DNA of 64,000 nt, from NCBI GenBank assembly GCA_963769885.1, contig CAVYNH010000006.1, positions 320,001 through 384,000 on the forward strand, read 5' to 3'. Under the pieces are notes generated by a model that worked only from the letters and a program-made list of their open reading frames with translations, was not told the origin of the DNA and did not search any database. This stretch comes from Methanobacteriota archaeon. Its GTDB lineage: Archaea > Thermoplasmatota > E2 > DHVEG-1. Below are positions 1,067 to 64,000 of this stretch, piece by piece. Made by a program: the position numbers and the translations under genes. Within the stretch, counting starts at the first letter, position 1. Each line of letters opens with the position of its first letter.

Positions 1067-1088
1067 TCACCCACGACGGAGCCCCGCG

Positions 1089-1117
1089 TTCGAACCTTTT
1101 CAAAAAAACTATTTAAT
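1089..1117 (+). promoter_or_regulatory. Repeated promoter motif, copy 1
   Basis: TTCGAACCTTTTCAAAAAAACTATTTAAT; near-identical copies at 1341 and 1494. Confidence 0.6.
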
Positions 1118-1137
1118 CCAAGAGCCAGAATAAAAAT

Positions 1138-1229
1138 AGGCATGGGAGGCAAGACAGGCCGACTCCGTTCTCCTCTTCTTCATGTCCTGGGAAACCCTTC
1201 ACATGCCCTGCCCTGCCTCCCATCTGCCT
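1138..1229 (+). ncRNA. Candidate hairpin sRNA, unit 1
   Basis: Starts about 21 nt after the TATA box; AGGCATGGGAGGCA pairs with TGCCTCCCATCTGCCT, or alternatively with CCTTCACATGCC; pyrimidine-rich loop. Confidence 0.4.
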
Positions 1230-1340
1230 CCATCACAATCCCACAACCCACTACCTCACGAGGTAACCAGCCAACGAGCGGAGGAGTCACCACCACCCCA
1301 CACGCCTGCCCCCCCGGCTCCTCCCCGCTCCCCCCACGCA

Positions 1341-1370
1341 TTCGAATCTTTTCAAAAAAAATATTTAAAT
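1341..1370 (+). promoter_or_regulatory. Repeated promoter motif, copy 2
   Basis: TTCGAATCTTTTCAAAAAAAATATTTAAAT. Confidence 0.6.
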
Positions 1371-1391
1371 CTACAACGCCTGATACAATTC

Positions 1392-1485
1392 AGGTATGGG
1401 AGGTAACCATGCGGGGCACACGCCTTGTATTCCCCTTCACCGCCTTGTGTCTTCATCATCCCCACACGGTACCCCATACCTTTTT
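1392..1485 (+). ncRNA. Candidate hairpin sRNA, unit 2
   Basis: AGGTATGGG...CCCATACCT closing stem, extended imperfect pairing, then TTTTT; starts about 22 nt after the TATA box. Confidence 0.45.
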
Positions 1486-1493
1486 CCGCCCTG

Positions 1494-1521
1494 TTCGAAG
1501 CTTTTCAAACAAACTATTAAA
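1494..1521 (+). promoter_or_regulatory. Repeated promoter motif, copy 3 (likely drives a leaderless mRNA for the 1547 gene)
   Basis: TTCGAAGCTTTTCAAACAAACTATTAAA about 25 nt before ATG 1547. Confidence 0.6.
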
Positions 1522-1546
1522 CACATCCAAAAATAAACCACGACCC

Positions 1547-4303
1547 ATGAAAACAATCCCCACACTCTTCATCCTCGCCCTCCTCCTCACAAGCCTTCTG
1601 CCCACCGCCACCGCCCGTAGCATCAGCCCGCCCCTCATCCTCGTCCAACGACAATCCGCCGCCGCCATCCGTACCACTGACACCATCCTCCTCTCCGCCC
1701 AAGCCAGCGACGACACCGCCCTTGATAAGGCCTACCTCTCCACCAACGAAACCGGCCACTGGCAGACCTATAGCTCCTGGTGGGACCCCCACTGGACCCA
1801 CGCCCTCAGACTCACCGTCGACCACACCACCATCCCCGCCAGCCTCACCGGCTTCCCCCTCCTCGTCATCCTCACCACCACCGACTTCGCTACGACCGCC
1901 CAGCCCGACGGCGACGACTTCCTCTTCACTGACGCCGCCAACACCACCCAATACCTCCACGAGATCGAGTCCTACGATCCCGCCACCGGAAGCCTCATCG
2001 CCTGGGTCCGCATCCCAACGCTCAGCGCCACCAAGGACACCACCCTCTTCCTCTACTACGGCAACCCAGACTGCCCAAGCCAACAAAGGCCTCGCGGCGT
2101 CTGGGCTGACTATCTCTCCGTGCTACATTTCACCGGCACCGCGGCCACCAGCCTCCACGACAGCGCATCCAACGAAACCCTGCTTTCCTACGGCGCACCC
2201 ATCTATGGTTGTCCCGGCAGGGTCGGTACGAGCATTGGTCTCAACACCAACGCCTCGGGCTCCTACCTCACGGCCCGCATCCATCTCCCGGCCAACTCCT
2301 CCTATACCCAAACAGTCTGGGTTTCTTTCGACGACACAGAATCCATAAGCGGCACCATCATCAACGGGAATGGCACCCAGGGGTTTCGCCTTCAGGTCAC
2401 GGAGACCGATCATGTCCGGAGCACGGCGATGACCGCGGCGGGAGTAAACAGCGTTCAGAGCACGACAGTCTTCGATCGATCCTCCCCAGTTTGGCGCGCT
2501 CTCTGTGGCCGTGTCAGCCTCCGAACCGGATGCCACGAGCTGTTTGTGGACGGCATCCGTGAGGCGGCTGGCGAGCTCCCGAGCTCAGTCCTCCCTGGGG
2601 TTGACGGCATCGTGTTCGGGGCGAACAGTAGCCATGCGGCGTTCCTGCACGGCCGCTTGGATGAGTTCCGCCTCTGTGCGAGAGACCTCAACGATTCCTG
2701 GATTAGGACGGAGGCCGCCATGATGCGATCTCCCGAGGCCTTCCTCCAGTGCAGCATGGTCCCGTCTCAGTGCATGGCCACGATCCATGGGTCTCCCCTT
2801 TGGCTTCATCAGAATTCGGACCCGCAATGGGCGAACTTCACCTGGGCAAGTCCTGGCGTCGTTCAAGGAACCATGGTAGGCTGGCGTATCATCTTCCAGG
2901 ATACCGGAGGATTTCAGAGCACGACCCCTGTCCTGAGCTTCCAGATCCTCGGTTCCCCGCCGAGTACTCCTTCGGCGCCGTCCGGCCCGAGTCGTACCAC
3001 GGTCGGCGTCCCGGCGTGCTTCTTGGTTCAGGCGGTTGATCCAGACGGTGACCCGGTTTCCTATGAGATGGACTACGGAGACGGCAGCGCTCTTGATTGG
3101 TCCACTGCATCAGCATCCGGAGCCGGTCAATGGATGACGCACGCATGGCGGCAAAGTGGCGAGTACCTTGTCAAAGTCCGGGCGAGGGATCCCTCCGGCG
3201 CAGAGTCGCCATGGTCTCCTCCCTCCTCGATCACCGTGTCCGGCTCAGGCTTGAGCTCACTGGCTATCCATGCCCCGACCGCGGTCACGGAAGGGGCTGA
3301 ATTCACGGTCACAGTAACCTGCGGCCTAGTTCCTGTTCCGGATGCAACGGTCCGCTTCGCATCGATGGTGCAGACGACGAACGGTACAGGCATTGTCAGG
3401 CTTTACGCTCCTGCCGCGAGCCGTGCGCAGAGTTTTTATCTTACGGCAGACCACCCGGAGTATGATGGGGCGATGATCACAGTTATCGTCGTCCGAACGG
3501 ACTCGGAGACTGAGTCTGGATGGATCTATGGCAGGGTCACGGGAGAAACGGGGGCGGGTCTTCCGAATGCCCAAATCACTGTCCAGGTGGATGGGACGAT
3601 GAACCATTGTGTCTTCACTGGTGAAACGGGTCGCTACACCATTCCACTGCGGGCTGGAGAGTACAGTCTTGTTGCGGACAAGCCTGGGTATGACTCGTTT
3701 TTGTTTCCAGGCGTGGTGGTGCAGCCTGGCCAGACGGTCGAGGTCAATCTGAGTCTTTCCCCGCATGCCGGCTCATCCTCAATAGAAACTTCTGATGAGA
3801 GTCTGGCGAAGGCGATCATTGATGCGGGGATCGCGGCGGATCGGATCGCGGGTCGGCTGGATGCATCGGATGGCTCGTGGGTGTTCTCGTCGTATCAGGA
3901 GGGGCTGTCGGCGTCGGTTGTCCATGGGTCGGCGTGGAACGTGTCGTTTACCGTGTCCGCGGTGAATCTGTCTGGGAGGGTCGTCGCGGTTCGGCTTGGG
4001 GATGCGGGGTCGGTGGATGGCGTGGATGTCCTGGTGGATGGGGTGTGGGTGGAGCAGGTGGATGTCGGTGAGGTGCTGTCGTTGGATGGGGGGGTTGCTC
4101 GGTTTGGGTGTATGAACGGGGAGGGGTCGGTGGTGTATTGTCTGGTGTATGTGCCGCAGTTCAGTAGTCATGTGGTGGAGGTGCGTGGGGTGGTGCGGGC
4201 GGTGTCGTTGGTGGGGTTGGCGGCGGTGTACGTGGGGGTGGGGGTGGTTGGGTTGGTTGGTGTTCTTCTTCCTATCGTTGCGATTGAGCGGAAGCGTCGG
4301 TGA
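1547..4303 (+). CDS. Surface protein: DUF2341, LamG-like, PKD and carboxypeptidase-regulatory-like domains, C-terminal TM anchor
   Basis: Signal peptide at ATG 1547; DUF2341 motifs (QPDGDDFLF, WVRIP, LYYGNP); GRLDEFR; DYGDG PKD; C-terminal TM plus RKRR. Confidence 0.8.
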   Translation: MKTIPTLFILALLLTSLLPTATARSISPPLILVQRQSAAAIRTTDTILLSAQASDDTALDKAYLSTNETGHWQTYSSWWDPHWTHALRLTVDHTTIPASLTGFPLLVILTTTDFATTAQPDGDDFLFTDAANTTQYLHEIESYDPATGSLIAWVRIPTLSATKDTTLFLYYGNPDCPSQQRPRGVWADYLSVLHFTGTAATSLHDSASNETLLSYGAPIYGCPGRVGTSIGLNTNASGSYLTARIHLPANSSYTQTVWVSFDDTESISGTIINGNGTQGFRLQVTETDHVRSTAMTAAGVNSVQSTTVFDRSSPVWRALCGRVSLRTGCHELFVDGIREAAGELPSSVLPGVDGIVFGANSSHAAFLHGRLDEFRLCARDLNDSWIRTEAAMMRSPEAFLQCSMVPSQCMATIHGSPLWLHQNSDPQWANFTWASPGVVQGTMVGWRIIFQDTGGFQSTTPVLSFQILGSPPSTPSAPSGPSRTTVGVPACFLVQAVDPDGDPVSYEMDYGDGSALDWSTASASGAGQWMTHAWRQSGEYLVKVRARDPSGAESPWSPPSSITVSGSGLSSLAIHAPTAVTEGAEFTVTVTCGLVPVPDATVRFASMVQTTNGTGIVRLYAPAASRAQSFYLTADHPEYDGAMITVIVVRTDSETESGWIYGRVTGETGAGLPNAQITVQVDGTMNHCVFTGETGRYTIPLRAGEYSLVADKPGYDSFLFPGVVVQPGQTVEVNLSLSPHAGSSSIETSDESLAKAIIDAGIAADRIAGRLDASDGSWVFSSYQEGLSASVVHGSAWNVSFTVSAVNLSGRVVAVRLGDAGSVDGVDVLVDGVWVEQVDVGEVLSLDGGVARFGCMNGEGSVVYCLVYVPQFSSHVVEVRGVVRAVSLVGLAAVYVGVGVVGLVGVLLPIVAIERKRR

Positions 4304-4349
4304 AAATGGTTATAAAATCTGGTGTGTTTCGTGATGGGAGGGTGTTGAG

Positions 4350-4613
4350 TTGATTGAGGGTGCGGTCGTGTTTTCGGTGATGACGGTGTTGTCGGTGGTG
4401 TTGTTTGCGGTGTCGGTGTTGAGTTTTGTGCGGTATCGGTCGGTGCGGATGTTGTTGATTAGTTTTATGCTTGGGTTGTTTGTGGTGCAGAGTGTGTTGT
4501 TGAGTCTGGGGTTGTTTTTTCCGGTGGTTGCTGGGTTTACGGGGAGTGTGTGGATGTGGGTGTTTGAGGTCGGGATTCTGGGTGTGTTGTATGTGACTGC
4601 GGTGAAGCCGTAG
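4350..4613 (+). CDS. Small 3-TM membrane protein
   Basis: Hydrophobic 87 aa ORF after a GGAGG SD; coupled to the HTH gene. Confidence 0.7.
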   Translation: MIEGAVVFSVMTVLSVVLFAVSVLSFVRYRSVRMLLISFMLGLFVVQSVLLSLGLFFPVVAGFTGSVWMWVFEVGILGVLYVTAVKP

Positions 4614-4622
4614 CGGGTTGTT

Positions 4623-5141
4623 ATGGCTGAGTTGTTTGAGTTGGAGACGCGGAAGCGGATTTTTCGGGTGATTGAGGAGCATCCGGGGTTGAATTTGAGT
4701 ACGATTGCGTCGATGTTGGGGATGAATGTGCCGTTGGTGGATTATCATACGCGGTATTTTGAGAAGCATGGGTTGGTGCTGGTGGCGAAGGATGGTGGGT
4801 TTAAGCGGTTTTATGTGAAGGGGGCGGTGGGGGTGGTGCATCGGCGGTTGTTTGGGGTGTTGCGGCAGGAGGTGCCGTTGCGGATTGTGTTGTTTTTGTT
4901 GAAGAATCCGGGGGCGCGGTATCCGCAGATTTGTGCGTGTTTTTCGTTTTCGAAGTCGACGGTGTCGTATCATTTGCGGAAGTTGATTCGGTGTGGGGTG
5001 GTGTGTGTGTCGGTGGAGGGGGAGGGGTGGGTGTATTCGGTGTTGGATGAGAAGGTGGTGGTGGGTTTTTTGCTGCAGTATAAGCCGAGTGGGGTGTTGC
5101 AGCGGTTCAAGGAGACGTGGGAGGAGTTCGGGCTGCCGTAA
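4623..5141 (+). CDS. Tandem winged-helix (ArsR-like) transcriptional regulator
   Basis: Two repeats: RKRIF..HPGL..YH and LRIVLFLLKNPG..STVSYHLRKL. Confidence 0.85.
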   Translation: MAELFELETRKRIFRVIEEHPGLNLSTIASMLGMNVPLVDYHTRYFEKHGLVLVAKDGGFKRFYVKGAVGVVHRRLFGVLRQEVPLRIVLFLLKNPGARYPQICACFSFSKSTVSYHLRKLIRCGVVCVSVEGEGWVYSVLDEKVVVGFLLQYKPSGVLQRFKETWEEFGLP

Positions 5142-11860: not shown

Positions 11861-12817
11861 TTACAGGATGATGTCGATGTCGAGCCGCTCGGCGAGCTCT
11901 TTGTAGCGGTTTCGTATGGTGACTTCGGTAACGCCGGCGACGTCTGCGACCTCGCGCTGGGTGCGCCGCTCGCCGCAGAGGATGCTAGCGATGTAAATAG
12001 AGGCTGCTGCGACGCCGGTCGGGCCGCGGCCGCTGGTCAGTTCCTTGTCCGCAGCCTCCTTGAGAATTTCGATGGATTTGGCCTGAACATCGCCGCTGAG
12101 CTTCAGCTCGCTGCAGAACCGGGAGATGTAATCTTGAGGAGATGTGGGCATGAGTTTGAGGCCGAGCTCTCGGGCGATGAAGCGGTAGGTGCGGCCGATC
12201 TCCTTGCGGGAGACGCGGCTGGAGGCGGCGATCTCGTCAAGAGTGCGGGGGACGTTGCATTGTCGGCAGGCGGCGTAGAGGGCGGAGGCGCTGACGCCTT
12301 CGATGCTGCGGCCGCGGATGAGGTTCTTGAGGACGGCCTTTCGGTAGACCATGGCCGCGGTCTCGCGGACGGTGCGGGGGAGGCCCATGCCTGAGGCCAT
12401 GCGGTCGAGTTCAGAGAGGGCGAAGGCGAGGTTGCGTTCGGTGGCGTCGCTGATGCGGATGCGGCGTTGCCATTTTCTGAGTCGGTAGAGTTGGGCGCGG
12501 TTGCGGGTGGGGATGGATTTGCCGTAAGAGTCGCGGTTTTTCCATCCAATCATGGTGGAGAGTCCTTTGTCGTGGATGGTGTAGGTCATGGGTGCGCCGA
12601 CTCTGGCCCGTTTTTCGCGTTGGTCGCTGTCGAAGGCGCGCCATTCGGGGCCGTGGTCGATGAAGTCTTGGTCGATGACGAGGCCGCAGTCTTCGCAGAC
12701 GAGTTCGGCGCGCGAGTAGTCTTTGCTGAGGTGGGTGCTGTTACATTCTGGACATTGGATGATTTCTTCGATGCTTTGGCGTTTTTCCTTTTTTTTCTTG
12801 GATTGCATTTGCACCAT
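11861..12817 (-). CDS. tfb: Transcription initiation factor IIB
   Basis: CPEC..CEDCG zinc ribbon, GPEWRAF, two cyclin repeats. Confidence 0.99.
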
Positions 12818-63532: not shown

Positions 63533-63703
63533 CCACCCCAGGGATAACCAGGAACAGGATTTAACCTTACGGAACCCACCACACCGCAACACACCCCACG
63601 GCCCCCCTCAAAACCGCGTTTCCCCCCGCGATTTCTTATAAAATTATAAATACTAAATCCCATATTTTTATCCACGCTTACCACTAGGGGCGAGGTTAAC
63701 ACC

Positions 63704-64000
63704 ATGAAGAAGACCATCCTCTCACTACTAATATGTACACTGCTGATCACCCCGATCGGTGTCATCTGCACCATCGCCGCACCAACCACACCCGCGCACC
63801 AGCCCCCAGGGCCGGCCTACGCACCACCGCTCACCTACATCGACACCTCCACGCCAACACCGGATCATCCAACGCTCCCCAGCAGCGGCGTCAACCCCCT
63901 CATCATCAACGTTCTCCAACAGGTTACCCCAGACTACTACCTCAGCTACCTCCAGACCCTCGTCAACTTCGGACCCCGCGTCACCGGCACCACCGCCTGC
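63704..64000 (+). CDS. Secreted M28-like peptidase (partial, runs off the window)
   Basis: MKKTIL signal; YLQTLVNFGPRVTGT resembles M28 N-termini. Confidence 0.65.
   Translation, partial: MKKTILSLLICTLLITPIGVICTIAAPTTPAHQPPGPAYAPPLTYIDTSTPTPDHPTLPSSGVNPLIINVLQQVTPDYYLSYLQTLVNFGPRVTGTTAC

Follow-up and report, generated by a model that had tools for sequence, protein, structure and literature searches.

The locus described here lies near the start of a 64,000-nucleotide window, the whole stretch of DNA that was analyzed (G000:C6:320001-384000), in a 2.09-Mb assembly (2,086,969 bases) of seven contigs that is 92% complete and has a G+C content of 55%. The window contains a TFB gene at positions 11861-12817, the nearest Atlas clusters of the encoded TFB are those of Thermoplasmatota, and the organism is an uncultured archaeon from sediment, probably of the Thermoplasmatota. 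A 16S rRNA gene (G000:C6:783900-785480) sits at the extreme end of the same contig. The genome of a sister species, "Euryarchaeota archaeon AlinenSediments_bin-5223" (G001), was available for comparison. The features of the locus, in window coordinates and all on the + strand, are as follows.

1088-1117, + strand: promoter copy P1, with TTCGAA and TTTTCAAA half-sites 10 bp apart, an A-rich BRE-like stretch and a TATA box at 1110-1117
1138-1231, + strand: predicted unit 1 hairpin, with 17-nt arms at 1142-1158 and 1207-1223 that are 88% complementary
1166-1200, + strand: unit 1 loop block of 35 nt, pyrimidine-rich, with a GGG-AAA-CCC mini-hairpin and one variable position in six sequences
1260-1269, + strand: Shine-Dalgarno (SD)-like motif GAGGTAACCA in the linker, invariant, with no start codon after it, and also a direct repeat
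1277-1330, + strand: predicted third hairpin, h3, with the stem GGAGGAG/CTCCTCC, just upstream of P2
1340-1369, + strand: promoter copy P2, with a TATA box at 1362-1369
1392-1485, + strand: unit 2, with a predicted closing helix (1393-1400/1473-1480), a second helix (1405-1408/1468-1471) and a T5 tail (1481-1485)
1427-1440 and 1443-1456, + strand: two 14-nt blocks of unit 2, invariant in the six-sequence alignment
1493-1522, + strand: promoter copy P3, serving the surface-protein gene, with a weaker TATA box at 1515-1522
1547-4303, + strand: gene for a secreted surface protein of 918 aa, with a signal peptide, DUF2341, LamG, PKD and CarboxypepD_reg domains and a C-terminal membrane anchor
4350-4613, + strand: gene for a small membrane protein, with a weak DUF7471 match under the Pfam cut-off
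4623-5141, + strand: gene for a two-winged-helix regulator, with an HVO_0163-like N-terminal HTH and an ArsR/MarR-type HTH

The exact sequence of the surface protein is not on record, and a search for related loci with this protein as the query gave no match. Directly past its stop codon lies a TATA-like box (TTATAAAA, 4313-4320) that is also present in G001 and in the metagenomic locus L054, which suggests that the pair formed by the membrane open reading frame (ORF) and the regulator may have a separate promoter.

The genome contains the 29-nt promoter module (upstream element, A-rich BRE-like stretch, and TATA box) in three places only, at 1089, 1341, and 1494. A 20-nt pattern has exactly three matches in the window, all on the + strand, with 0.01 expected from shuffles, and the same three are the only matches in the whole genome even with two mismatches allowed. 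The copies are 83-89% identical over 35 nt and have the TTCGAA/TTTTCAAA upstream element in common, so that the three near-identical promoters reported at these positions in the initial annotation of this DNA are borne out. Its view that they form one promoter class is supported as well: because a TFB gene is present and the relatives are archaeal, we read the elements as BRE/TATA promoters of the archaeal and not the bacterial type. A bacterial-type scan for sigma-70 promoters and hairpin terminators returned zero matches, which is what one would expect of an archaeon and of loops exceeding 8 nt.

The spacing of these promoters is constrained. A consensus was drawn from 17 promoter copies in six loci, and the TATA box and upstream element are kept in all 17. 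Across the six loci the ATG follows TTCGAA at 53-54 nt in the case of P1 and P3 and at 55-57 nt in that of P2; in G000 the ATG at 1142 lies 53 nt from the TTCGAA of P1, equal to the spacing between P3 and the ATG of the surface-protein gene, and the corresponding ATG of unit 2 is at 1396. The P3 TATA box precedes the gene ATG by 25-27 nt in six orthologues, and this ATG opens a signal peptide in every one. No purine-rich SD was found between the P3 TATA box and the gene ATG (1547) in any of the six loci, and the surface-protein mRNA made from P3 is probably leaderless. Since the spacing is constant and the gene ATG has no SD, we place the start sites at or beside these ATGs; on the simplest reading of the promoter spacing, RNA 5' ends would fall near 1139-1142 for unit 1 and near 1392-1396 for unit 2. 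Each unit would have its own BRE/TATA promoter (at about -27) upstream, as a trans-acting sRNA gene should, and the module is kept in 17/17 copies, with the spacing found ahead of the leaderless gene.

The whole layout of P1, unit 1, h3, P2, unit 2, P3, and gene is kept in G001 and in the metagenomic loci L042, L046/L054, L047, and L049. The metagenome contigs were found by an exact-word scan with 19 nt of the unit 1 loop, which gave four true loci among 12 matches; L054, reached through the surface protein, is identical to L046 in this region, and the sample amounts to about four lineages. Another contig reached through the surface protein, L055, starts at the promoter. The region is 69% identical in G001. 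G001 (CAIRCU01) and the contigs Ga0315282, Ga0315279, Ga0209777, and Ga0326726 originate from boreal-lake and freshwater sediments. Identity between lineages is 83-84% in unit 1, 73-81% in unit 2, 68-79% in the promoters, 53-59% in the spacer, and 48-61%, with many indels, in the first 90 nt of the surface-protein gene. The four-fold degenerate sites of the neighboring regulator gene are 76% identical between G000 and G001, and the whole-unit identity of 80-84% for this pair is thus only modestly above that near-neutral benchmark. We argue for selection because there are blocks that are invariant in all lineages, and because these contrast with the indel-rich spacer.

Both units are ~90 nt long, are predicted to have paired ends, and carry an ATG near the 5' end (1142 and 1396). 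They have a 5' arm in common (1138-1152 and 1392-1406, 87% identity); in unit 1 the arm ATGGGAGG carries the ATG, and the ATG is invariant in all 12 unit sequences. The predicted unit 1 stem of ~10 bp joins the arm ATGGGAGGCA to its complement and is followed by an inner helix of 4-5 bp, while in unit 2 an invariant 8-bp helix (GGUAUGGG/CCCAUACC) is followed by a second helix of 3-5 bp and then by two competing inner folds. The 3' tail of the 16S rRNA is GGATCACCTCCT, and the GGGAGG(T) motifs in the units are therefore good SD look-alikes in this organism. Both G000 units fold with their ends paired at z-scores of about -2.9 against dinucleotide shuffles, with an equally good fold in 3/200 and 1/200 shuffles, and the same closing helices appear when the 12 unit sequences (six per unit) are folded separately. 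The z-scores were -2.9 (G000), -3.9 (G001), and -1.4 (L042, not better than shuffles) for unit 1 and -2.9, -2.9, and -3.1 for unit 2 of the same sequences. The third hairpin, which had been overlooked previously and which lies, conserved, between unit 1 and any T-run, is predicted independently in 6/6 orthologues (z = -3.5 in G000).

In the alignments, 83.5% and 94.6% of the cells in predicted pairs are paired, versus 31-53% when the partners are slid. Each unit has a single compensatory change, namely an A-U to G-C change in the unit 1 stem (columns 14/78 of alignment A4) and an A-U/G-C exchange in the second helix of unit 2 (columns 14/87 of alignment A3), and changes in the third helix opposite U or G are all wobble-compatible. 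The covariation score was reached by 99/500 and 39/500 shuffles, in data from about four lineages. The structure of the units thus appears conserved, but the covariation is weak and does not prove an RNA structure. A run of T4-5 directly follows the unit 2 stem in 6/6 sequences (T4 in four of the six). Unit 1 itself lacks a U-tract, and the first T-run after it is the T4 at 1349-1352 inside P2; runs of T4 or more in the region are limited to the unit 2 tail, the three promoters, and a site past the upstream gene. These results agree with most of what the initial annotation had described here: a shared 5' arm that folds back on a complementary arm, the TTTTT that ends unit 2, two alternative partners in unit 1 (TGCCTCC at 1213-1219 and 1224-1230), and the particular loop strings that it named. 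They also support its reading of the two units as paralogous, hairpin-forming, noncoding sequences that are conserved in relatives.

We examined the coding potential of the units in the orthologues. A 1-nt insertion in L042 and L047 shifts the invariant core of unit 1 into another frame, the core of unit 2 is likewise read in different frames by lineage, with a stop after nine codons in L049, and the ORFs that begin at the unit ATGs range from 10 to 1076 codons. Because frame-shifting indels inside otherwise invariant blocks rule out coding, we read the units from these alignments as noncoding. An N-terminal extension of the surface protein from the ATG at 1142 or 1409 was considered and rejected, as it is in frame only in G000 and L046/L054. 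In these sequences the frame from 1142 crosses P2 and P3 without a stop and enters the gene in phase (1054 and 1076 codons), even though the spacer lengths differ by 36 nt; the four other sequences stop at the P2 TATA box. The long open frame is probably a chance feature of a C-rich, stop-poor strand. It had also been proposed that the unit 2 stem masks an SD and a start codon at 1409. The GGGAGGT ahead of this ATG and its frame with 1547 are indeed present in G000, but the SD/ATG arrangement (1399-1411) is found only in G000 and L046/L054, and the other lineages have CTG or CCG and no SD. Peptides on the minus strand (MKKRRT... and MMKTQG...) were rejected as well, as they diverge by frameshift and have no visible promoter or SD.

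The units match no established RNA or repeat class among those checked. The best Rfam matches between 900 and 1700 scored 14-22 bits against thresholds of 49-100 bits and were to eukaryotic miRNA or lncRNA models or other unrelated models, and the match to a known family that had been named at the outset as a refutation was not obtained. A MITE or other dispersed repeat, named at the outset as an observation that would overturn the idea of an sRNA family, can be ruled out, since blastn (word size 7) and an nhmmer profile of four units find only the two units. C/D box sRNAs are recognized by a C box (RUGAUGA) and a D box (CUGA). We rejected this class: alignments A3 and A4 contain no conserved C/D boxes, duplexes with rRNA are no better than those of shuffles, and the ATGATGA on the minus strand of unit 2 is present in G000 only. 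Outside the species pair, the unit 2 model R1 run on 101 family genomes matched G000 and G001 only, plus one match at E = 0.07, and models R1 and R2, with filters off, gave only matches at E > 1 on 23 loci of other genera that carry this promoter. When all species genomes were scanned with a pattern, G001 was the only one identified. Within the genomes searched, the units were not detected outside one genus, to which they appear to be confined.

Beyond this genus, eight or more genera of the family have the promoter module, usually ahead of genes for secreted proteins. With one mismatch allowed, the motif was found in 10/61 family genomes (17 copies in G015, six in G014, four in G047, and three in G002), and a reversed-pattern control gave almost no matches. 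Most of the copies elsewhere precede genes that have a signal-peptide-like N terminus and an SD, and in relatives with promoters of this class a structured leader of 60-130 nt precedes an SD. A Logan contig with a DUF2341/LamG homologue likewise begins with the promoter motif. Some copies elsewhere instead precede short hairpins with T-run tails (G015:C9, G002:C7, and G002:C16). At the G015:C9 locus (L028, reverse strand from 1501) the candidate RNA would begin with GGUAUGGGG and have a CU-rich loop, and the two G002 hairpins (L024 and L029) have a common CCCCCATATCTTT tail that resembles the 3' end of unit 2; all three hairpins lie directly downstream of regulator paralogues, and covariance models detect no homology. 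A second, unrelated three-promoter array is present in G015:C21 (L035, reverse strand, 1119, 1406, and 1501), where short units with a T5 end follow two of the copies, one unit being only ~40 nt long and containing TCTTCTTCAT, and a gene for a secreted protein that does not resemble a DUF2341 orthologue follows the third. In L013 (G042:C35, from 1501) the promoter is followed by a 41-codon ORF with an SD and a Cys-rich tail (PCCYCYMVDLV), possibly a small secreted or modified peptide.

The order of surface protein, membrane ORF, and regulator is also found in G001, L054 (4835-5628), and L055 (4025-4774); this pair of membrane ORF and regulator follows the surface-protein gene in several genera, also in L057. 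Paralogues of the regulator are encoded on the same strand and within 4 kb of the motif in six loci of five genera (G002:C16, G002:C7, G015:C9, G042:C103, G047:C10, and G014:C9). Because its two winged-helix domains can be matched to the two half-sites spaced 10 bp apart, and judging from the proximity of its paralogues to the motif, the regulator encoded at 4623-5141 is an attractive candidate for the factor that recognizes the shared upstream element.

The initial annotation had further suggested that the loops target the initiation regions of secreted-protein mRNAs, and this is not supported by our analysis, as the duplex energies of the loops equal those of composition-matched shuffled loops. 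For three loop segments, scored by the mean of the 20 best duplexes against 1773 start regions (crude start calls that are biased towards SD), 14/25, 8/25, and 11/25 shuffled loops did as well. Any C/U-rich RNA should pair more favorably with start regions than with internal windows, and the loops do so. In the genome, the top antisense seeds, of 15 and 18 nt, fall in the 3' end of an opposite-strand gene and in a gene interior and not at starts, and the loops show no excess complementarity to 16S or 23S rRNA over shuffles. The start regions of the DUF7471 and regulator genes contain no conserved loop match, the ATGGGAGGG match being confined to G000 without conservation elsewhere. At 63703-63713, the 11-nt complement to the unit 1 loop that had been put forward as evidence is real and covers the start codon of a secreted-protein gene (63704), but a match of this length is at chance level in 4.2 Mb. 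That gene (MKKTILSLL...) has its own TATA-rich promoter and SD (region 63640-63760). The evidence offered for action in trans is thus at chance level; since an sRNA may have only few targets, the units may still act as sRNAs of that kind.

We favor, at a little less than an even chance, the explanation that the locus encodes two promoter-driven, structured, noncoding RNAs that are co-regulated with the surface-protein gene. We hypothesize that the promoter, transcription start, and leaderless ATG of this gene were duplicated twice in tandem in the ancestor of the genus. P3, the most downstream copy, would still make the leaderless DUF2341/LamG mRNA, and P1 and P2, which have better TATA boxes, would now make noncoding RNAs. 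RNA-1 would start near 1140, comprise the unit 1 hairpin, the SD-like linker, and h3, and probably end at the P2 T4 run (~210 nt), and RNA-2 would start near 1393 and form a rod-like hairpin of ~92 nt with a conserved U4-5 end. Each RNA is predicted to lock its 5' AUG and an SD-like GGGAGG into the closing stem while displaying invariant C/U-rich loops. As the three promoters have the same upstream element, which the product of the operon's last gene, the two-winged-helix regulator, would probably recognize, the RNAs would be made under the conditions in which the surface protein is made. We infer that their action would be exerted by the invariant loops, which could pair with purine-rich RNA or else bind a protein.

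The same arrangement can be read as a set of tandem promoters for a single gene, with P1 and P2 transcripts that read through into the gene and hairpins that serve as stabilizing or attenuating elements of a leader. All of the promoters face one gene and nothing else lies in between, relatives with this promoter class do have structured leaders before an SD, the T4 runs in 4/6 sequences would be weak archaeal terminators, and the frame from 1142 is open into the gene in G000 and L046/L054. Two promoters and a stabilizing 5' untranslated region (UTR) stem-loop also have a precedent at an S-layer gene (PMC10221546). However, because the gene ATG has no SD in six loci and lies at leaderless distance from P3, leadered transcripts would be poorly suited to translation. 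Moreover, the T-run past the unit 2 stem has been kept in surroundings that are poor in T, stabilization does not need invariant loops of 35 and 14+14 nt, and the open frame is lost in 4/6 sequences. We consider tandem promoters of this kind an unlikely explanation. A device that works at the level of DNA or transcription is rather less likely in our view: the promoter copies would be decoys for the regulator or for TBP/TFB, or would interfere with or insulate P3, the conserved blocks would be DNA bound by proteins, and the RNAs would be by-products. The three copies of an element with half-sites 10 bp apart, a two-winged-helix regulator in the operon, regulator paralogues within 4 kb of the motif at six further loci in five genera, and promoter arrays elsewhere (e.g., in G015:C21) are all compatible with such a device. 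The inverted repeats are nevertheless 50-70 nt apart, which is unusual for protein-binding palindromes, the stem changes preserve pairs, including G-U pairs that exist only in the + strand RNA, no such block lies upstream of P1, and a nearly invariant block of 35 nt is long for a binding site.

It is also conceivable, although with a lower probability again, that the units are decaying relics of tandem duplications of promoter and gene start with no present function. The ATG spacing of the units equals that of the gene, the SD-ATG context of unit 2 in G000 and L046 resembles a normal start region, the units are confined to one genus, and covariation is weak; yet about four lineages have kept the layout and the invariant blocks, whereas identity in the spacer and signal-peptide codons has dropped to 50-60%, with indels, and all 17 promoter copies keep the TATA box and upstream element. 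Leaderless small-protein genes starting at ATG 1142 and 1396, or the minus-strand ORFs MKKRRT and MMKTQG, are highly improbable. The ATG is invariant in 12/12 units and stands at the predicted RNA 5' end, and four sequences resemble one another over the first 27 codons of unit 1, but the invariant nucleotides fall in different frames by lineage, L049 has an early stop, the ORFs are between 10 and 1076 codons long, the predicted closing stem buries the AUG, and the minus-strand ORFs have neither a visible promoter nor an SD.

If the locus does encode two hairpin RNAs co-regulated with the surface protein, a fuller circuit can be proposed, which we regard as unlikely in its entirety. Duplication of the promoter and start would have given birth to the RNA genes, the regulator would switch the surface protein and the two hairpin RNAs together, and the loops would tune translation of envelope or secreted proteins or titrate an RNA-binding protein; the analogues in G015 and G002 would make this a family-wide design.

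To our knowledge, archaeal small RNAs with known origin or function are very few, and there are almost none from uncultured lineages. The locus may offer a clean and testable case of the birth of sRNA genes by the copying of a leaderless gene's promoter and start. A defined promoter/operator class, described by a 17-copy consensus, marks secreted-protein genes across a family of sediment archaea and is adjoined by a candidate regulator, and the three natural promoter variants are ready-made for in vitro transcription. Should the RNAs not be expressed, the locus would still be an example of a tandem promoter duplication held by selection.

The units resemble several known systems in part. With MITEs they have in common a length of ~90 nt, terminal inverted repeats, and the presence of two copies, but these copies are adjacent at one locus, only two in number, and 70% identical, each has an upstream promoter, and the arrangement is syntenic across species. 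Like archaeal C/D box sRNAs they would be small RNAs with paired termini, but the + strand has no conserved boxes, no rRNA complementarity beyond shuffles, and no Rfam match. The bacterial S-layer gene slpA of Lactobacillaceae is transcribed from two consecutive promoters with a stabilizing 5' UTR stem-loop in the leader (PMC10221546), and here too consecutive promoters precede a surface-protein gene, with stable hairpins predicted between promoter and gene. The hairpin leader of slpA exposes the ribosome binding site (RBS), whereas the present gene has no SD and is apparently leaderless from its proximal promoter, and a conserved U-tract separates unit 2 from the gene; slpA and the present locus come from separate domains and share no homology. 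Among known systems, archaeal intergenic sRNAs come closest, exemplified by sRNA41 and sRNA154 of Methanosarcina mazei, which are trans-acting, were found by RNA-seq, and have validated targets (PMC5867862). The units described here are known from sequence, their complementarity to start regions is at chance level, their promoters are copies of that of the neighboring gene, and their 5' ends would carry a relic of a leaderless start, all of which sets them apart from the M. mazei sRNAs. They fall in no named family, and as in M. mazei they would be short, structured, genus-restricted RNAs without an Rfam family, predicted to be made from their own promoters between protein genes and to display pyrimidine-rich single-stranded stretches of the kind that mask RBSs.
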